64,000 bases of DNA from Candidatus Latescibacterota bacterium. Its GTDB lineage: Bacteria; Latescibacterota; UBA2968. A program made the position numbers and the translations under genes. The notes below the pieces were generated by a model. That model saw only the letters and a program-made list of their open reading frames with translations, made no database searches and was not told where the DNA came from. How positions within the stretch are numbered: the stretch's first letter is position 1; the number at the start of each line of letters is the position of its first letter. Location of the stretch: NCBI GenBank assembly GCA_965205975.1, contig OZ242195.1:3872001-3936000 (forward strand). The letters run 5' to 3'. Below are positions 18,790 through 29,287 of the stretch, one piece after another.

Positions 18790-20574
18790 ATGAACGTCTT
18801 CCTCCGCCTCATCACATACATCCGCCCTTACCTGGGCCGCGTGTGCATCGGTATCGGCGCCACCCTCGTCATGATTGGCCTGGATGCCGCGCAACCCCTG
18901 CTCATGCGCGAAGTCATCGACAACATATTAACCCCTTACTTCACAGAAGGGAATTATATTGGCGGCGACTTCTCCGACACAAAAATCGCAGCCGACTTCG
19001 ACAGCCTCCAATTCTACGCCCTGCTCCTCCTCGGCATCTATATACTCCACACCATCTTCAGCTTCATCAACCGCTACTTACTCAACCGAACGGGACAGGA
19101 CATCCTCTTCAGCCTCCGCGTCCAGGTCTATGACCACCTCCAGCACCTGGGACTGCGTTTTTACAACGACCGCAGCACCGGCGAATTGATGTCGCGCGTA
19201 ACCGCCGACGTCGAATCCCTCCAATACACCGTCACAGACACCCTGGAACGCGTACTCGTAAATATCGCAACCATCGTCATCTACGGCATCATCCTCTTTG
19301 GCCTCAGCTTCGAACTCGCCCTCATTACCCTGTTGCCCATGCCTATATACAGCATCCTCATCATCTTCTACAACCGCACCATACGCCCCTATTACACCAT
19401 GGCACGCGAACGCATAGCCGACATCAGCGCCCTTTTGCAAGACAACCTCTCCGGCATCCGCGTCATCAAATGCTTTGCCCGCGAAGGCCACGAACTCTCT
19501 CGCTTCACCCAAAAATGCAAAGCCTTCCTCACCATCAGCATCACCATCATCAAAACCCGCGTCGCCTTCTTCCCCCTCGCCCGATTCATCATCTCCATGG
19601 GACCCCTCCTCGTCCTCCTCTTCGGCGGGCAACAAATCATCTCGGGCGACCTCACCATCGGCACCCTCTTCGCCTTTCAAAGCTTTCTCTGGCGTTTCTA
19701 CGGCCCCGTAGAAAGCCTCACCCGCATCAACGACACGATCGTACGCGCAGCCGCCTCAGCGCGTCGCATCTTTGAAATCCTGGACACCCAACCCGAAATA
19801 AAAGACACCCCCAATGCGCTCCCCTTTGACCGCCTGAACGGCAGCGTTGAATTTCAGAACGTCACCTTTGCCTACGAACACGGACCCCCTGTTCTCCAGG
19901 GCGTATCCCTCAGCGCACAACCCGGGCAACTCATCGGCCTCGTTGGCCCCAGCGGCGCGGGCAAAACCACCATCATCAACCTCATCTGCCGCTTCTATGA
20001 CCCCGACTCTGGCACCGTGTGCGTTGACGGCCATGACCTCAAAAACATGCAACGCGCATCCTTGCGCAGCCAAATCGGCATGGTCTTACAAGAACCATTC
20101 CTCTTCAACGGAACCATCCGCGAAAACATCGCTTATGGCAAACTCAACGCCACCGAAACCGACATCATCAACGCCGCAATGATGGCCAACGCCCACGACT
20201 TCGTCTGCGGATTCCCGGACGCTTATGACACCCACATTGGCGAACGGGGCGTGCGCTTATCCGGCGGCGAAAAACAGCGCATCTCCATAGCCCGCGCCAT
20301 CCTCAACGACCCGCGCATCCTCATCCTGGACGAAGCCACATCCTCTGTTGACACCGAAACCGAAATGCTCATACAAAACGCCCTCGAACGCCTCATGGAA
20401 GGCCGCACCACCTTTGCGATCGCCCATCGCTTATCCACCGTGCGCCGCGCCGACTGCCTCTACGTCATCGACCGCGGCAAAATCGTCGAATTCGGCACAC
20501 ACACCCAGCTACTCGCCAGCGACGGCCTCTACGCTCGCCTGTGCGACATGCAATTTGCCTTGGAAGAAGCGTGA
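18790..20574 (+). CDS. ABC exporter, fused permease and ATPase
   Basis: GPSGAGKTT, LSGGEKQR, ILDEATSS; N-terminal TM domain. Confidence 0.95.
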   Translation: MNVFLRLITYIRPYLGRVCIGIGATLVMIGLDAAQPLLMREVIDNILTPYFTEGNYIGGDFSDTKIAADFDSLQFYALLLLGIYILHTIFSFINRYLLNRTGQDILFSLRVQVYDHLQHLGLRFYNDRSTGELMSRVTADVESLQYTVTDTLERVLVNIATIVIYGIILFGLSFELALITLLPMPIYSILIIFYNRTIRPYYTMARERIADISALLQDNLSGIRVIKCFAREGHELSRFTQKCKAFLTISITIIKTRVAFFPLARFIISMGPLLVLLFGGQQIISGDLTIGTLFAFQSFLWRFYGPVESLTRINDTIVRAAASARRIFEILDTQPEIKDTPNALPFDRLNGSVEFQNVTFAYEHGPPVLQGVSLSAQPGQLIGLVGPSGAGKTTIINLICRFYDPDSGTVCVDGHDLKNMQRASLRSQIGMVLQEPFLFNGTIRENIAYGKLNATETDIINAAMMANAHDFVCGFPDAYDTHIGERGVRLSGGEKQRISIARAILNDPRILILDEATSSVDTETEMLIQNALERLMEGRTTFAIAHRLSTVRRADCLYVIDRGKIVEFGTHTQLLASDGLYARLCDMQFALEEA

Positions 20575-20724
20575 AAAAGCAACCACAGATGAACACAGAT
20601 AAACACGGATGAAAGGCAAAAAGCGAAAGGCAAAATCAAAATCAAAACCTCTGGATCGCGGCTAACACCATGCCGCGATGACAGACGGGACGGCACAGGG
20701 GCCGTCCCCTACGGAGATCTCGAC

Positions 20725-21267
20725 ATGGACCTCATGGTACAACAACTCATCCCCGAAACCATTGACTTATGTCAAAACGGTGACAGCCTGATCCTCTTTG
20801 CCGACGGAGAAGAACTACACATCGATCACATCGTGCGATGTTTTCCCTTTTCCACGCCCGATCAATGGATCAGCCTCCGCGACCGGGACAGAACCGAACT
20901 CGGCCTCTTGCCCACACTTGACGGATTAAATGCACAATCGCGGACACTCGTTGAAGAACACCTCAAAGACCGCTACGACATCCCCCAAATCCAGACCATA
21001 CTCAACATCGAAAGCAACAAAGAAGGCGGCACAAACTGGGACATTGACACCAACGCGGGACCTATGAACTTCACACTCCGAGGCGACCAGAACCTCAACC
21101 TCAACGCATTTCCCGAAATCGTATTCACCGACGCCATAACGCGCAAACGCTACAAAATCCCCGACTATACCAAACTCGACCGCGCCAGCCAAAAAACCGC
21201 CCGCGCGTACCTGCCCATGAGCTCTCGCCACTACTCCGGGCGCCGCGGCGGCAGGAGTGGAAGGTAA
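20725..21267 (+). CDS. DUF1854-like protein
   Basis: RCFPFSTPDQWISL, W.IDTNAGP, LDRASQK; follows an ABC exporter. Confidence 0.7.
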   Translation: MDLMVQQLIPETIDLCQNGDSLILFADGEELHIDHIVRCFPFSTPDQWISLRDRDRTELGLLPTLDGLNAQSRTLVEEHLKDRYDIPQIQTILNIESNKEGGTNWDIDTNAGPMNFTLRGDQNLNLNAFPEIVFTDAITRKRYKIPDYTKLDRASQKTARAYLPMSSRHYSGRRGGRSGR

Positions 21268-21457
21268 AAAAAACGGGCGACCACAGGGGGTCGCCCCTAC
21301 AATACCTTCTGGATCGCACGGGACGGCACAGGGGCCGTCCCCTACACCATGCCTGCCCCTGTATGCTTTAAGCAGGGGCCGCGATGACATGCCTTTAACG
21401 TCTTGTATCTTACGTTTTATCGGTGTTTATCGGTGTTCATCTGTGGTTGCATTTCCC

Positions 21458-22915
21458 CTACTTCCCCCTTCTCGACCCCATCATCTTCGACGCGATCTCG
21501 ACCTCCTCGGCAAACGCCTCTGCCTCATCGTCATACGTATCAAACGGATCGCGGAAACTCAAATGGAATTCATTTTCCAAATACACCGAATCCCAATCCA
21601 CAATATACCGCACCCGATTTTGCGACAACGTCTTCACCATTGCCGCCCGCGCCTTTGCCCGCGTATCAGCCGGAGGCGCCCCACAAGCCTCTTCAACGCG
21701 CTCATCCGTCAGCACCCGCTGCATCTTACCCTGCTGCACCAGATCAAAATACAACCCGCGATTGGGATCGATATTGTGATACTCCAAATCCAAACTCTGC
21801 AACCACGGATCGTTCCAACTCAAATTCTCCGACTCGCGAAACGCATCCAACAACCACTTCTTAGCCACCCAGTCCAAACGATCTGTCAACTGCATCGGAT
21901 CGGACTCCAGATCATCAAGTGTGCGCTCCCACTCATCCAGCACCCAATCTGACTCCTCATCCAAACCCCTCAAATGGCGTTGCGCCAAATCCAAATACGT
22001 GCGCTGTATATCAATAGCCGAAATAGACCGCCCATTCTGCCGATCCAGAATCCACTTATGTGTCGGATCCCGCGAAATCTCCTTCAATGCCCACACCGGA
22101 TCCCCCAGATCCACATCCTGAGGAAAAATTTTGCGCTCTAAGAGATTCAGCACCATCGCAGTCGTACCAACCTTCAAAGCCGTCGCATACTCCGACATAT
22201 TCGAATCGCCCACCAGAAGGTGCAAACGGCGGTACTTGCTGTGATCTGCCAGCGGTTCATCTCGCGTATTGATAATCGCGCGAGAAAACTGAATCCACTG
22301 ATAAATCTCTGTAACAATATGATCGGCACGCTGAGAAATCTGGAAAGAAACCGCATCCTCTGTATCGGCGGCATCTCGCACATTTTGCCCATAATAATAA
22401 AAACTATCATCATAACTGCCCACGCGACCTGCACCGCAAAAAATTTGGCGCGTCACCAAGAACGGCAACAACGCGGGAATAACAACCGTTGAAAACGGCA
22501 CATTGCGCCTGACCAGATAATTTTCATGACAGCCAAACGTCGCACCCGTATAATGATCGATATTATTCTTCAAAAACGAAGCTTCTTTAGCCAACCCCAG
22601 CGCGTGCAATGCCCGATACAAAATACAATCGCCCGCCCGATCAAAAGCCACAATATCCCACAACCCCATACACTCCGGCGTGGCGTATTCCAGATGCCCC
22701 ATATCGATATAAACCCGCCCCGCATTAAACAAAAAACCCCCATTGCCCGGGGGTTCATCCCGTCCGCGATAGTGAATATCTACAATCCCTATTCGGTCAA
22801 CGTGAAAAATGTGATCCTTTACCTTCACCGAAATCGTATCTGGACTCACAAAACCCTCGTGCTCGGGTGCCAAACACCCATACTCGGTTTCTATGCCAAA
22901 AATGCGATCTCTCAT
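21458..22915 (-). CDS. pafA: PafA-like ligase for the ubiquitin-like modifier
   Basis: RIFGIETEYG, N.GRVYID.GHLEYATPEC, GCHENY, IINTRDEP, RRLHLLVGDSNM; lacks the Dop loop. Confidence 0.88.
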   Translation of the reverse strand: MRDRIFGIETEYGCLAPEHEGFVSPDTISVKVKDHIFHVDRIGIVDIHYRGRDEPPGNGGFLFNAGRVYIDMGHLEYATPECMGLWDIVAFDRAGDCILYRALHALGLAKEASFLKNNIDHYTGATFGCHENYLVRRNVPFSTVVIPALLPFLVTRQIFCGAGRVGSYDDSFYYYGQNVRDAADTEDAVSFQISQRADHIVTEIYQWIQFSRAIINTRDEPLADHSKYRRLHLLVGDSNMSEYATALKVGTTAMVLNLLERKIFPQDVDLGDPVWALKEISRDPTHKWILDRQNGRSISAIDIQRTYLDLAQRHLRGLDEESDWVLDEWERTLDDLESDPMQLTDRLDWVAKKWLLDAFRESENLSWNDPWLQSLDLEYHNIDPNRGLYFDLVQQGKMQRVLTDERVEEACGAPPADTRAKARAAMVKTLSQNRVRYIVDWDSVYLENEFHLSFRDPFDTYDDEAEAFAEEVEIASKMMGSRRGK

Positions 22916-22985
22916 GGGGGGGCCTCAATGATAGATGGGCGAGGCATGCCTCGCTCCTACAATCGGGCAACCACGAGGGTTGCCC

Positions 22986-23777
22986 CTACAATATAAACGG
23001 TGCCAGCGCGGGCGCAATCTCTTCTGCATCGACATTGCGATATTTGTTTTTACCCACCTGCGACCGCCCCAACACCACCGCCTCCACCTCCAAATCCACC
23101 AACGCCGTCTCAAGCACATCAGCCACATCGACCGCCCCAGCCACCTGCTCCAACTCGTCGGCATCTGTAGGTACCTCTTCCATCTTCCCAATCCATCGCC
23201 CGATTGCCCAGGCGCGAAGCGCAGCACCTGCGGCATCTGACAAAGACAACGCCTCCGTATCCAAACCCGACAACTCGCGCACCATCATCACATCTGCCTC
23301 CACAACACCCCCCACAGCAACACATCCCTCGTGCCGATAAAACGCACCATCGTAATCCACCGTATAAAAAATCTGCGCCCCCTCCTGCCCATCCAACTCC
23401 GCCAGAAGCACCCGCGCCAAAAACGGAGACCGCACCACATCGTCAAACCCCGCCTTCATCGCAGGACCCAGACCAAAATACACAATCTGGCGCAACGTCA
23501 CATCGTCCTCTGAATAATTAAACCCAATCGAATGCGCCATATCAATCGCAGCCTGCCTGAGCTTCTCGATATCCGTCGAATGCCCAATCGCCGCAAGTCC
23601 GATGCAGTCGTACACCTCAAACACCTTTTGCTGACTCTGCGACAGCGTCAGCAACAAAATCCCATCCTCGTACCCAACACCCACAACCGGACTCCCCGTC
23701 CGAATCTGATCTTCGATATAATCGCGCCGATTCGCAACAGCCTCTGCCCAGCGATACGGCTCATCTGACAACATCAT
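22986..23777 (-). CDS. prcA: 20S proteasome alpha subunit
   Basis: GSPVVG...GILL, KVFEVYD.IG.AAIG; follows prcB in the operon. Confidence 0.85.
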   Translation of the reverse strand: MMLSDEPYRWAEAVANRRDYIEDQIRTGSPVVGVGYEDGILLLTLSQSQQKVFEVYDCIGLAAIGHSTDIEKLRQAAIDMAHSIGFNYSEDDVTLRQIVYFGLGPAMKAGFDDVVRSPFLARVLLAELDGQEGAQIFYTVDYDGAFYRHEGCVAVGGVVEADVMMVRELSGLDTEALSLSDAAGAALRAWAIGRWIGKMEEVPTDADELEQVAGAVDVADVLETALVDLEVEAVVLGRSQVGKNKYRNVDAEEIAPALAPFIL

Positions 23778-24577
23778 GCGCGTCCCGCCTCCTCCCCATC
23801 CACATATTGAACATAGAGCTGCCGCAACGCCTCGGTCTCGATCTCTTCCAGACCCGACGCCGTAATCGTCTTCACCGACGGAAAAATATCAGCCGACCGC
23901 TCGTATCGACCCGTCGCCGAATCGTATTCTGACGCTGTATCCAGAAGCTGAAGCGCGTGCCCGATAGCCGCATCGCGATCCATCTCCACAAACCGCCGAC
24001 CGCTCCAGCGATTCAAATAATACATCGCCCCGCGAATCGCCGGCGACCCCGACCCCGTCGTCGTAAAATCGGCGCTCTCGAACTGCGCCCCCAGCGCATC
24101 GTAAAAATAAATTTTACCCCGCGCATCCACCTGATCATACGTCGCAAAAATGGGAATCACAGCACCAATACCCTGCATCGCCATCGGCAAATTATCCTTA
24201 ATCAACAGCGACAACCTGCGCAACTTCGCCTGCAAACTCATCTCCTGAAGCAAACGACGGCGATAATACTGAAATGCATGCTCCAAAATTCGCGCAATCT
24301 CAAACGCAATAGACGGCGATCCCGAAATCGCCATCACAGAATACGCATCCAGATCAATCACCTTATCCGCGCGATCATAAAGCACCATATTGCCCGCTGT
24401 AGCGCGGCGATCACCTGCAACGAGCACCCCATCGGCATATTGAAATGCCAGAATCGTCGTCGCATCCGTCGGCTCAAAAGGCAAATCGCGCTCGGACTGA
24501 ACATCGCCCAAATTTTCACCTGGGAACCGGTAGCCCGTCTGCCGCAGCAAATCGACAAAATCCCCACCCGATTGCAT
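23774..24577 (-). CDS. prcB: 20S proteasome beta subunit with propeptide
   Basis: TTILA...GVLVAGDRRATAGN, TTGSGS. Confidence 0.92.
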   Translation of the reverse strand: MQSGGDFVDLLRQTGYRFPGENLGDVQSERDLPFEPTDATTILAFQYADGVLVAGDRRATAGNMVLYDRADKVIDLDAYSVMAISGSPSIAFEIARILEHAFQYYRRRLLQEMSLQAKLRRLSLLIKDNLPMAMQGIGAVIPIFATYDQVDARGKIYFYDALGAQFESADFTTTGSGSPAIRGAMYYLNRWSGRRFVEMDRDAAIGHALQLLDTASEYDSATGRYERSADIFPSVKTITASGLEEIETEALRQLYVQYVDGEEAGRA

Positions 24578-24580
24578 AAG

Positions 24581-24772
24581 CTACTCGCCTGTACGCTGGC
24601 GATAACGCCGCGCCTGATTGGGATCAACGCGCCGCATGCGCCGCAGCAAATCGCGCGTATCTGGCCGCTCCACCTTCGGGCGCGCAGGGCCACCATCGCC
24701 ATCATCACCAGGACCAGGACCTCCCGGATCGACTGGCTTCGTCCGTCGCTCAAACTGCAAGACCTTATCCAT
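24581..24772 (-). CDS. ubact: Ubiquitin-like protein UBact
   Basis: 63 aa, disordered Gly/Pro/Asp-rich N-terminus, C-terminus LLRRMRRVDPNQARRYRQRTGE (R[ST]G[EQ]); AAGGAGG SD; lies between dop and prcB. Confidence 0.92.
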   Translation of the reverse strand: MDKVLQFERRTKPVDPGGPGPGDDGDGGPARPKVERPDTRDLLRRMRRVDPNQARRYRQRTGE

Positions 24773-24928
24773 CTACGGCCTCCTTAATGAAAAATGTCTG
24801 AATCAGGATTTACAGGATTATAGGATGAAAAACAAAATCAAAACCAACAGCAAAATCTTCTGGATCGCGGCTTACACCCTGCCGCGATGACAATCACCCC
24901 TCACACTTCACACTTTCTCCTTCACACT

Positions 24929-26452
24929 TCACACTTTCTCCAACGCAGCTAAAAAACTTTCCAACGTCTCCGAACGATCAAGCACCTCATTATAACGCTC
25001 TACCCGCTCCGCATCCACCAATAATTTCATATCCACTGCATGCTGGCGGCCATTGCGCTTAAACACAATGCGATCCCAGTTAATCGACGACACATAATCG
25101 CCGAACTTCTCCAAACTGCGCCCTCGAAAATACGCCCGCGTACCCGAAGGCGGTTCCGACATCGCCGCAGCCACCTCATCATCGCCCACCAGACGCACCA
25201 TCTGCCCCTGCGACTCCAGCAAATAATACAAACCCGCATCCCGATCCACATTGCTATACTCCAGATCCTGACTCTGCATCCAGAACAAATCATCGGGATT
25301 ATCCCACGCCAGATTCTCCGCCTCGCAAAAACTATCGATCAACCACTTCTTCGTCACCCAATCGCACACACCCACCAGATCCATCGGATCGCGGCTCAAC
25401 TTCTCCAACACATCTTCCCACGCCGACAACACCCAATCCGTCTCTCGATCCCGCCCGGCAAACTCGCGCCGTGCCAAATTCAAAAACGCATCCTGAATCT
25501 CAACCGCGGGAACGAGGCGATGGCCGGGCCCCTCCACCTCAACCAACCACGCATGCGACTGATCCCGCGCGATATTCTTCATCGCCGCAATCGGATCCTT
25601 CAACCGATAATCCGGCAAACAATCCGCCTCAATCAAATCGATCACCAGCGCCGTTGTCCCCACCTTAAGCGCCGTAATATACTCCGACATATTGGCATCG
25701 CCCACAATTACATGCAACCGGCGATATTGCGCCGCATCTGCGTGGGGTTCATCGCGCGTATTCACAACCGGACGCTTGTGCATCGTATCCACACTCGCGA
25801 TCACCTCAAAAAACTCCGCGCGCTGCGACAACTGATAAATCGGTGCGCGATCCTCCCGCTCAACCCCCACCTTGCCAGCCCCGCAAAAAATTTGCCGCGT
25901 GGGGAAAAACAACAACAACCCCTTCAATATACGCTCGAAAGGCACCGAGCGATCCATCAAATAATTCTCGTGACACCCATAGCTATGCCCTTCAAAATCC
26001 GTATTATTCTTATACATCCGCACAGTGCCCTGATCGAGCATCTCCGTCCGCCGCTGCGCGCAAATATCCACAATGCGCTCCCCCGCCTTATCCTGTGCCA
26101 CAAGCTCGAACAAACTTATGCACTCACCCGTCGAATACTCTGGATGCGTATGATCGTTGTAAAACCGGGACCCATTGTAAATAATCAAATCGCTCTTCAA
26201 TTCCTTAAACGGAATCTTGCGCTTGCGATCCTGTTGCAAATGCACCTTTTCATCGACATCATTCAACAGATTTTTAACTTCAAACCCCCGCTCATCCCGA
26301 CGGGGATTCTCCAGCCGATAATCCCACAACGGAACAAACTTACCCTGCTGATAGCACCGAATCAACTGCATTGACTCTTCCACCACATCGACCTTATCCA
26401 CCTCGTCAATCGTGATTCCGTATTCTGTTTCTATACCGAATAAGCGCGTCAT
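24929..26452 (-). CDS. dop: Dop-like deamidase/isopeptidase
   Basis: GIETEYG, Dop-loop WDYRLENPRRDERGF, NGSRFYNDHTHPEYS, SYGCHENY. Confidence 0.88.
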   Translation of the reverse strand: MTRLFGIETEYGITIDEVDKVDVVEESMQLIRCYQQGKFVPLWDYRLENPRRDERGFEVKNLLNDVDEKVHLQQDRKRKIPFKELKSDLIIYNGSRFYNDHTHPEYSTGECISLFELVAQDKAGERIVDICAQRRTEMLDQGTVRMYKNNTDFEGHSYGCHENYLMDRSVPFERILKGLLLFFPTRQIFCGAGKVGVEREDRAPIYQLSQRAEFFEVIASVDTMHKRPVVNTRDEPHADAAQYRRLHVIVGDANMSEYITALKVGTTALVIDLIEADCLPDYRLKDPIAAMKNIARDQSHAWLVEVEGPGHRLVPAVEIQDAFLNLARREFAGRDRETDWVLSAWEDVLEKLSRDPMDLVGVCDWVTKKWLIDSFCEAENLAWDNPDDLFWMQSQDLEYSNVDRDAGLYYLLESQGQMVRLVGDDEVAAAMSEPPSGTRAYFRGRSLEKFGDYVSSINWDRIVFKRNGRQHAVDMKLLVDAERVERYNEVLDRSETLESFLAALEKV

Positions 26453-26550
26453 AATTCAGTCCCGAACCACCACCTGCGGGCGGGCACAAGACCCGCCCCT
26501 ACAATTTTTCCATCTGCGTCCATCTGCGTCCATCTGCGTCTATCTGCGGA

Positions 26551-28191
26551 TCACACCACACCATGCCCGCGGGTGCGTCGTTCTCGCCTGGGGCGAATCG
26601 GTGCTGCGCGCACCACATTTTCCGGATCGTAATCCAGCAACTTCAACCAATCCTCTGTATTATCCGTCGGCGGGAAAATCTCATTCTCGCTATACTCCGT
26701 CTCAATCCCCGCGAGCAAATCGTCAAAACCAATCCCATCTTCCGCGCCAGAAGCAATACACCGCTTAATCGCAATCTCCTTCGCACGCTGCGCAATAGAC
26801 TCGAGAATTGCCCCACTACACAGATCTCCGCGACTCAACACTTCCTTCCGACCGCTTCTAAGCGTCACCTCCAAAAAACGCGTATCATCGCGCCTGGCAT
26901 ATATCTCTGCAATCGCGCGCGCCACCAGATCGTCAACTGCTGCCCGCACATTGCCATCATGCACATTTAACGCAGCCTCTGACAGCGGCAAATCAGCCGT
27001 CAAATAAATACCCAAAATCTCGCGCGCCGCATCCATATCCGGTCGAATAACCTTGATCTTGCGATCAATTCTCCCCGGACGCAAAATCGCCGGATCGATC
27101 AAATCTGGACGATTGGACGTCAAAATAATCACCACATCTTGCAGTGACTCGATCCCATCCATCTCGGAACAAAACATCGGCACAACCGTATTTGAAATAT
27201 TGTGCGACCGAATTGCCCGCCGCGTCCCCAAAACCGACTCTGCCTCGTCGATAAACACCACCGGCAAAAATCCCTCGCGCCGCTTCTCCCGCGCCTGGGA
27301 GAAAATCTCGCGCACCTTGCGTTCAGACTCTCCCAACCACATATTCAAAATCTCAGGACCCTTAATATGCATAAAACACGCCTTGAGATTCAGGCCGTCT
27401 TCCTGCACCTGCCGCTCCAGATTGTACGCCGTCGCCTTCCCAATCAGCGTCTTGCCACACCCCGGCGGACCGTACAACAAAAACCCCTTGGGCGTACTGT
27501 ACTGAAACCGCTTAAACAACTCTGGATGCAACACCGGCATCTCAATCGTATCTTTAATCGCCTGAATCGCATCCTTTTGTCCACCGATCTTCTCCCACGG
27601 CAAATCGGGCACTTCCTCCAAATAAAAATCCTTAACCTCGCACATCTTCTCCAGCGCCACGCGAAAATGCGGATCGATACGCACCTCTTCGCCCGCCTTC
27701 AAAGCCTCGGCCTCCAGATCTGCCCCTCGCAGCAGAACATGCGTCTGCGAACCGTGCTCTTGCCCCACCTGCAAACGCCCATCGTCCAGCACATCGACAA
27801 TTTTGCCCACAGTCCCCGACGGAGACTCCCCCATATCGCCCACCACGGCAAACGCCTCATTGACCAGCACGCGCGTACCCACCCTCAAACTGCGGTCATC
27901 CAACCGCGAATCCACATTCGCATAATACTCCGCCCCCCCCACCGTAAGATACGCGATACCATTCTCTGGCGGTGCCAACAGCGTCCCCACCCGATTGGCC
28001 GGAGCCGTCACCTTCTCCAGCGCCCCTTCCAGCTCCACAATCGTGCGCCTCGCCTCTTCAAACGTAATCTCATCTTCCTGAAGCTGCCGACGCAACTGGT
28101 ACAACAGGGGCCGCCGTCGATCCGTCTCATCCATCGTCATCAAAATTTGATCGATAATCGACAACGACTGAAACGTATGCTGCATATCCAC
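26551..28191 (-). CDS. arc: Proteasomal AAA+ ATPase (ARC/Mpa-like); true start may be at 28251
   Basis: N-terminal coiled coil and OB-like region, GPPGCGKT, IKGPEILN, FIDEAE, SNRPDLIDPAILRPGRID. Confidence 0.92.
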   Translation of the reverse strand: MDMQHTFQSLSIIDQILMTMDETDRRRPLLYQLRRQLQEDEITFEEARRTIVELEGALEKVTAPANRVGTLLAPPENGIAYLTVGGAEYYANVDSRLDDRSLRVGTRVLVNEAFAVVGDMGESPSGTVGKIVDVLDDGRLQVGQEHGSQTHVLLRGADLEAEALKAGEEVRIDPHFRVALEKMCEVKDFYLEEVPDLPWEKIGGQKDAIQAIKDTIEMPVLHPELFKRFQYSTPKGFLLYGPPGCGKTLIGKATAYNLERQVQEDGLNLKACFMHIKGPEILNMWLGESERKVREIFSQAREKRREGFLPVVFIDEAESVLGTRRAIRSHNISNTVVPMFCSEMDGIESLQDVVIILTSNRPDLIDPAILRPGRIDRKIKVIRPDMDAAREILGIYLTADLPLSEAALNVHDGNVRAAVDDLVARAIAEIYARRDDTRFLEVTLRSGRKEVLSRGDLCSGAILESIAQRAKEIAIKRCIASGAEDGIGFDDLLAGIETEYSENEIFPPTDNTEDWLKLLDYDPENVVRAAPIRPRRERRTRGHGVV

Positions 28192-28351
28192 ATAGTCCTG
28201 AAGAAAATCTTCAGGTGACTTTCTCTGACGATCAGAATCATTGGTATTGATGGGTCACCTCCGGATCAGGATGTGCAGGAAAGATTTTCTGAAGAATACC
28301 ATATCTCAAAACCCGTGTCAAGCCGCGAGACGGGCGAGGCATGCCTCGCCC

Positions 28352-29287
28352 CTACTCCTTCTCCAACTTCTCTAACTTGCGCTCCATATCGATCTTAACC
28401 TCGGCGACAATATTGGCAATCGGATCCCGCTTCCCCGCTTTAATCACCACGGGCCTATCGATATTAAAATGCACCTTGTGCTCCATCACCAGGCCGCGCG
28501 TCGCATCGATCACCCACGACCCCCCGCCTGTACCCTTCCCATTGTAATACAAAGAAGCCGCACTCACATCGATCCACCCCGCGTACATCACCTCACTATC
28601 CTCATCGATATGCACCTCCACGCGCCCCTTCTCCTGCTTGATATTCTTCACCTCATACGTACTCTTAATTTTAATCTCCGAATCGCGCCCCAGCATATCC
28701 ATACTCGCAAAAGGACGCCAAAAAACGCGCTCCCCCGTCCAGGTATCGCCCTTATTAACCGGACCCTCTGGCAAAACCGGTGCAAACGCCGGCATCGCCC
28801 CCTGGTACATATCCGTAATCAAATCCTGCCGCTCCACGCGAAACGCGGGAAAATCCGGCTCGAACTTCTGCGCTATGCCCTCGGGCGTCACCTGCCAGGT
28901 AAAAACCCTGTCATTAAACATATCAAACGTAAACGGAAACTGCTCATACGTCTGCTTCTCACCCAGAAAAATCGCTGCACTCGCCCCCTTTTTAATCTCA
29001 GCGCGGATCCCCATCACCCCTTCGGGAATCGTCCGCCCCGGCAATGCCCGGGGCACAACCACCTCTTCATGGCTGCGCCACTCATTATCTATAATCACGC
29101 GAATATGCCCGCTCCGCATCACAATCTGCTCGCCCTGATTGCTGTAATACTCCACCCGGAACTTGTGCTTATATCGCGCCTTGCGTCCTTCCGGAAACTT
29201 CAATGCCAGCACAGTGGGTTGCGCCCAACAATCGGCGGCAACACCGGCGAGTAACCCGAGAACAATCGTTAATTTCCACATAAGCAC
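28352..29287 (-). CDS. Secreted hypothetical beta-rich protein
   Basis: Signal peptide; GGAGG upstream; VLPEGPV.KGDTW and WVIDATRGLV patterns. Confidence 0.7.
   Translation of the reverse strand: MLMWKLTIVLGLLAGVAADCWAQPTVLALKFPEGRKARYKHKFRVEYYSNQGEQIVMRSGHIRVIIDNEWRSHEEVVVPRALPGRTIPEGVMGIRAEIKKGASAAIFLGEKQTYEQFPFTFDMFNDRVFTWQVTPEGIAQKFEPDFPAFRVERQDLITDMYQGAMPAFAPVLPEGPVNKGDTWTGERVFWRPFASMDMLGRDSEIKIKSTYEVKNIKQEKGRVEVHIDEDSEVMYAGWIDVSAASLYYNGKGTGGGSWVIDATRGLVMEHKVHFNIDRPVVIKAGKRDPIANIVAEVKIDMERKLEKLEKE

Follow-up and report, generated by a model that had tools for sequence, protein, structure and literature searches.

A UBact–proteasome operon of a Candidatus Latescibacterota bacterium and the tail-less ARC ATPase that it encodes

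Does a bacterium outside the Actinobacteria that encodes a small protein tag, two PafA/Dop-family enzymes, the ATPase ARC and a 20S proteasome degrade proteins as in pupylation, and how would its ATPase engage the 20S particle? The question is raised by a six-gene operon in a Candidatus Latescibacterota genome, studied here in a window of 64,000 nucleotides (nt), which is the whole stretch of DNA analysed (positions 3,872,001 to 3,936,000 of contig OZ242195.1, assembly GCA_965205975.1). The locus is a genuine, intact example of the already described UBact/proteasome operon of Gram-negative bacteria. The mechanism proposed for it as a whole, an intact UBact–proteasome pathway working like pupylation, is given a probability of about 0.7 on sequence grounds.

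According to this proposal, the downstream PafA/Dop-family enzyme, the presumed ligase of the two paralogues, would activate the side chain of the terminal Glu of the tag with ATP and join it to target lysines, following the chemistry of the family. The upstream paralogue, in which Dop motifs are present, would remove the tag and deamidate tags ending in Gln. ARC would bind the tag, unfold the target and pass it into a 20S particle that would act as a self-maturing Thr protease and has its active-site residues in place. Coupling would proceed without the GQYL/HbYX (hydrophobic–Tyr–any residue) tail, which is absent, through a basic beta-hairpin (RSGR) on ARC placed against an acidic H0 helix of the alpha subunit; optionally, the aliphatic C-terminal carboxylate of ARC might also enter a remodelled pocket that retains a Lys. 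In this taxonomic order, an AUC/AUU start codon, which is found together with its Shine-Dalgarno sequence, probably limits the output of ARC.

Gene content and distribution of the operon

A reading made from the sequence alone had proposed a complete UBact/20S operon in a non-actinobacterial genome, with six co-oriented genes in the order arc-dop-ubact-prcB-prcA-pafA and a modifier ending in RYRQRTGE rather than in the GG[QE] of Pup. Profile searches bear this out. The six frames on the minus strand are uninterrupted, with gaps of 98, 156, 3, −4 and 70 nt in order from arc to the ligase gene, and each gene is single-copy in a 98%-complete genome. The 63-residue open reading frame (ORF) scores above the cut-off of both UBact models, with 80.2 bits for NF033388 (cut-off 35) and 70.4 for PF20513 (cut-off 27.8), and the Pup profile PF05639, which did match a C. 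glutamicum control, has no match in the genome. PF03136 (Pup_ligase) exceeds 480 bits for both paralogues, and PF00227 is matched by the alpha and beta subunits. The actinobacterial NCBIfam equivalog cut-offs are reached by none of the five enzyme and subunit genes (458.7 bits for arc with TIGR03689, cut-off 504.75; 450 for dop with TIGR03688, cut-off 492). The sequence-only reading had placed the operon at 21458 to 28254, where the genes do lie, although the end coordinate 28254 marks the limit of the arc frame measured from stop to stop; that reading did not notice that ARC has no GQYL tail or that arc probably begins at an ATC.

The relatives also agree with the proposed host, since the best 80 of the 132 loci examined come mostly from Ca. 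Latescibacterota. All six genes stand in identical order in 73 of these 80 genome loci, the remaining 7 being interrupted by contig ends. Of 151 genomes of the phylum, 111 have a UBact match: the source genome, 108 of 114 in its class and 2 of the 36 others; the UBact operon is thus standard, near-universal, in this class. A metagenome scan by the Dop motif, from which 80 loci were taken out of at least 120 matches, yielded ARC sequences mostly 50–63% identical, in the same layout or in split forms, and close relatives are present in sponge metagenome runs. No phage-borne copies were found in viral_contigs, and the ESM Atlas search returned ARC/AAA clusters only; its hit 5 is an ARC-like ATPase cluster that is 68% viral.

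Several loci depart from the common layout. Pairs of arc and dop that are not followed directly by a tag or 20S gene (L101, L105, L117, L126, L142, L144, L156 and similar) are probably split loci, and the ARC of such loci (L101, L105 and others) still ends in VI or II. Conversely, dop-ubact-prcB cassettes (L146, L147, L151, L155) showed no match to arc, prcA or the ligase gene within 7 kb. In one relative, two matches resembling UBact lie some 150 nt from each other (G107:C69:7179-7576; 80.6 and 53.9 bits), and in L044 (1631-9912) arc is seemingly truncated and about 1.6 kb separates prcB from prcA.

It is very improbable that the operon survives only as a silent or decaying remnant or has come in recently as a passenger. 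Palindromic repeats are inserted between its genes, and the contigs from four sponge RNA libraries (two studies) that span the operon and its flanks may derive from DNA, which would leave room for such a reading; against it stand the intact frames, the conserved catalytic residues, the presence of UBact throughout the class and a GC content similar to that of the rest of the window. UBact loci of this kind have been catalogued many times, so that the operon alone adds little; the features shared across the family weigh more.

The ARC ATPase: docking surface and start codon

In the source prcB, the equivalents of D17, K33, S129 and D166 are intact, and among 110 related beta subunits T1 and D17 are invariant and K33 is kept in 109. 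An Ala at beta position −1, considered as a special feature, also occurs in 28 of the 110 relatives and in Nonomuraea and was set aside. The source ARC has OB (oligonucleotide/oligosaccharide-binding) domains, Walker A and B motifs, a beta-hairpin RSGRK and the C-terminus GHGVV. Across 123 relatives in which the C-terminus is complete (71 from genome and 52 from metagenome loci), the GQYL/HbYX tail is absent: Tyr is never found at −2, and the final residue is always I or V. Four ARC loci dropped by the filter either end in VI/II (two) or are seemingly truncated (two). The proteins end 28–34 residues past a conserved Trp, at the position of Mpa T601, 8 residues before the end of Mpa.

A tail with a penultimate Tyr is required by those bacterial tag-driven proteasome ATPases that have been studied; in mycobacteria, GQYL is said to be essential, and the opening of an unmodified 20S particle by Mpa is treated as an open point (PMC12288473). 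On the alpha subunit, the Tyr of GQYL binds to R26 or E119 and the carboxylate of the tail to K52 (PMC9599533, PMC11953334). When these residues were mapped through an alignment of PDB chains (102 of 106 alpha matches could be scored), K52 and D144 were found in 102/102 relatives, R26 in 4/102 and E119 in none, its place being taken by I, L, V or M in 98 and by T in 4; in the actinobacterial controls, all four residues are present in 120/120. A second contact of Mpa places the hairpin ANGDK on a basic H0 helix (PMC8755798). In ARC, an Arg occupies the position of Mpa D504 in 100 of the 116 hairpins parsed from 127 sequences, and the source alpha subunit has acidic E22 and D23 on H0. Positions 21 and 22 of this helix are acidic in 89/103 and 98/103 alpha subunits, respectively, and R or K in 120/120 controls; the numbering is that of the PDB alignment made here, and PMC8755798 lists R22.

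The strongest hint that the 20S particle is still engaged by ARC comes from this reciprocal exchange of charge between hairpin and H0, a correlation among kin. Docking would then be tyrosine-free, for which Cpa and 11S offer a precedent (PMC6017811, PMC6466877). Several points weigh against a functional coupling of this kind. The controls for the alpha subunit are one family (69–97% identical) plus Rhodococcus and Mycobacterium chains, and the related UBact loci do not count as independent cases; the hairpin contact of Mpa alone gives no stable complex (PMC8755798); and the aliphatic pair at the end of ARC may be the last element of the beta-grasp fold, with a purely structural role. On balance, HbYX-free coupling of ATPase and 20S, by way of a hairpin/H0 rail with swapped charges and an altered pocket, is slightly favoured.

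The other reading is that ARC is uncoupled from the 20S particle, so that tagged proteins would only be unfolded or remodelled, as in the proteasome-less Corynebacterium, and the 20S would act alone or with another activator. A tail that is missing throughout and stops at the beta-grasp boundary would fit this reading, as would the essential role described for GQYL in mycobacteria and the loci in which arc-dop lacks adjacent tag and 20S genes or dop-ubact-prcB lacks arc. It is nevertheless unlikely, since arc and prcBA share an operon in the 73 complete genome loci, the charges on ARC and alpha have changed reciprocally, the pocket Lys is invariant and Tyr-free binding to 20S is known for other activators. 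The genome also has no match to the Bpa profile PF10759, although this profile found no positive control match anywhere. ORFs ending in GxY[LIMV], sought as replacement activators, number four.

In the open literature, no mention of an absent tail in these phyla was found; Lehmann 2017 and De Mot 2007, outside that coverage, may hold some of these points. A widespread natural system without the tail, with both sides of the interface changed, provides a ready test of what gate opening requires, and the test system is small, comprising six genes from a marine bacterium that is not a pathogen.

The start of arc probably lies at the ATC at 28251. A strong Shine-Dalgarno sequence, GGAGGT, stands 5 nt upstream of this in-frame codon, and an in-frame TGA lies two codons upstream of it. 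In 42 sequences with the SPEDFLQDY block in common, the codon at this place reads ATC in 25, ATT in 15, ATA in 1 and ATG in 1, and GGAG or GAGG precedes it in 37; an ATT is also seen at this codon in L043 and L044. The block upstream of the first GTG shows 17 synonymous against 5 non-synonymous codon variants, and in L027 both downstream canonical starts are absent. In other lineages, 17 of 19 ATGs linked to a Shine-Dalgarno sequence lie 76–89 codons before the anchor, compared with 83 for the source ATC; the search yielded no such start in 37 of the 68 loci scored. The case is weakened by the retention of the downstream GTG in 37/42 sequences and of the ATG in 40/42, and by a weak AGGA before these codons, either of which could be the real start or a second one, although GTG makes up 112 of the 155 Val codons of the operon. 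General use of ATH starts in this genome was rejected: over 3036 long ORFs, these codons occur 0.5–0.69-fold after GGAGG, while ATG reaches 8-fold. The probable ATC start looks lineage-specific. In E. coli, AUA, AUC and AUU initiate at 1–2% of the level of AUG (10.1101/063800). Cloning arc from its first GTG or ATG would lose 20 conserved residues.

The tag and its two enzymes

All 117 related tags end in R[ST]G[EQ], the source tag in RTGE; this is reportedly the UBact C-terminal motif of Lehmann 2017. The terminal residue is Glu in 74 of these loci and Gln in 43, and at least 16 switches between the two map onto a 113-tip Dop tree. A Glu end is also found in Actinobacteria, where the Pup of Nonomuraea ends in GGE. 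The source UBact has a net charge of +5 over its last 27 residues; over the last 30, the 117 UBact tags range from +3 to +7, as against −9 in Nonomuraea Pup, with which BLAST gives no alignment. A matching charge reversal in the ARC coiled coil was not seen (median −1 in 101 sequences; Nonomuraea −1).

The Dop-loop motif W[DN][YF] is found in 134 of 144 Dops and in none of 97 ligases. From the terminal Glu, it had been concluded that Dop should act only as a de-conjugase. The conclusion is right as far as the maturation of the tag in this strain goes but does not extend to the enzyme itself: because orthologous tags end in Gln and E/Q switches have recurred, the Dops of UBact loci most likely retain deamidase chemistry.

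The downstream paralogue had been labelled PafA, which agrees with its lack of the Dop-loop; the label is looser than implied, since its 379 bits with TIGR03686 (cut-off 551) are almost equalled by 370 with the Dop model. At the Dop-loop position, it carries a 14-residue insertion unlike that loop. Set against Table 1 of PMC7947786, its residues are PafA-type at Hecht positions 7, 11, 13, 14, 25, 33 and 46, and it retains the GhExE, Asp and Arg positions needed for catalysis. Most of its alpha-loop is neither PafA- nor Dop-type, and both the SSATTRSR alpha-loop and the DVGSH loop of PafA are missing. Ligase activity would therefore be assigned to it by exclusion. The alpha-loop is a main substrate contact in PafA (10.64898/2026.04.10.717840), so that the choice of targets by the UBact ligase may differ.

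Some features speak against a PafA-like enzyme. The alpha-loop threonine pair, both members of which PafA needs for full activity (PMC7947786), is replaced by I/V-Q in 90/90 loops parsed from 100 ligases; residues are Dop-type at Hecht positions 3, 15 and 28 (table of PMC7947786); and the sequence is nearer to solved Dop than to PafA (303 against 255 bits). In a Foldseek search with an AlphaFold2 model (predicted local distance difference test score 90), the top six matches are Dop structures (template modelling score 0.82–0.84), with PafA close behind (0.77–0.82). Together with the near-equal profile scores, these features could mean that the downstream paralogue is no PafA-type Lys ligase, having another acceptor, both activities or dependence on a cofactor, or that the two paralogues share both reactions. 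Such a division of roles is improbable, given that loss of the Dop-loop and replacement of the alpha-loop turn Dop into a ligase (PMC7947786), that the Dop hallmarks lie on the other paralogue and that the catalytic positions are kept. The alpha-loop conformation in the model (strand plus loop) was uninformative as a ligase test, as a PafA control scoring above the cut-off was likewise non-helical.

UBact ligases and UBact Dops each form a clade of their own (supports 100/99 and 99/97; IQ-TREE on 58 chosen rows, from 130 plus 10 added). IQ-TREE groups the two clades together, with 85/98 under LG+G4 and a Shimodaira–Hasegawa-like approximate likelihood ratio test support of 97 under C20. FastTree, run on 130 rows, does not join them, and the classical PafA|Dop split stays compatible with the data in approximately unbiased tests (p 0.35 and 0.43), which leaves an independent origin of the ligase unproven. 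A duplication shared with its cognate Dop, and hence a second origin of ligase from hydrolase, is a tentative suggestion, held somewhat less likely than not. UBact systems may represent a separately evolved second bacterial tag–proteasome pathway.

Surroundings of the operon and comparison with known systems

The features of the locus are listed in Table 1. Promoter-like sites number 11, compared with 6.2 ± 2.8 in shuffled sequence. Short palindromic or tandem intergenic repeat families, presumably REP-like (repetitive extragenic palindromic), lie at 20575-20712, 21273-21345, 21410-21454, 22933-22992, 24828-24892, 26477-26548 and 28328-28355; they sit between operon genes and vary among relatives. 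In profile searches, the genes flanking the operon showed no family relation to the UBact/proteasome pathway. At 18790-21267 (+), an ATP-binding cassette (ABC) transporter and a DUF1854 protein converge on the operon and resemble a cyanophycin-associated pair (NF052233 and NF052234, both below cut-off). Directly upstream, at 28352-29287 (−), lies the gene for a 311-residue protein whose N-terminus resembles a signal peptide and which matches DUF6263 weakly.

Table 1. Operon genes and candidate signals, in positions of the window.
Feature	Position	Strand	Remarks
Sigma70-like promoter candidate	28293..28321	-	TTGACA-17-TATTCT, TG before -10; consensus match only
Shine-Dalgarno and probable start of arc	28249..28262	-	GGAGGT 28262-28257, probable ATC 28251-28249; sequence comparison
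arc/mpa, AAA+ unfoldase	26551..28251	-	Probable ATC start, GTG 28191 alternative; 566 aa from ATC, 546 from GTG
dop, Dop-type deamidase/de-conjugase	24929..26452	-	Dop-loop and DHTHPEY motif
UBact tag	24581..24772	-	63 aa, ends RYRQRTGE
prcB, 20S beta subunit	23774..24577	-	39-aa propeptide, Thr1 = T40
prcA, 20S alpha subunit	22986..23777	-	K52/D144 equivalents kept; R26 equivalent T27, E119 equivalent L120
Putative UBact ligase (PafA/Dop family, own clade)	21458..22915	-	No Dop-loop; alpha/extended loop HIVTEIYQWIQFSR
Terminator candidate	21275..21296	-	Hairpin and T-run; hairpin is a member of an intergenic palindrome family

The tail-less ARC with its altered docking surface, the probable ATC start of arc and the separate ligase clade seem to be unreported, in a literature search that did not cover Lehmann 2017; within the same coverage of the open literature, no experimental or functional study of UBact was found. 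Lehmann et al. 2017 reportedly described UBact conjugation and proteasome loci and may already note some of the features found here. From the UBact loci of Gram-negative phyla (NF033388, PF20513), which share its tag family and keep the genes for ARC, Dop, the ligase, PrcB and PrcA side by side, the present operon does not differ in kind; the probable ATC start looks particular to this lineage.

The actinobacterial Pup–proteasome system resembles it in gene set and order (Nonomuraea locus L093), in enzyme folds and in the Thr protease site, the pocket Lys and the beta-grasp hairpin. The two differ in the tag, which cannot be aligned and is basic where Pup is acidic; in the ATPase and its partner, with no GQYL, with alpha R26 and E119 replaced and with the hairpin and H0 charges swapped; and in the ligase and Dop, each in its own clade apart from actinobacterial PafA and Dop. 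Cpa and eukaryotic 11S/PA28 associate with 20S without HbYX, as proposed for ARC, but are unrelated to a tag-driven ATPase, and the last five residues of Cpa are dispensable for binding (PMC6017811). The AUU starts of E. coli infC and pcnB are gene-specific near-cognate starts like that of arc (10.1101/063800); in contrast to these, the start proposed here belongs to a proteasomal ATPase, and ATC, ATT and ATA interchange freely among its relatives.

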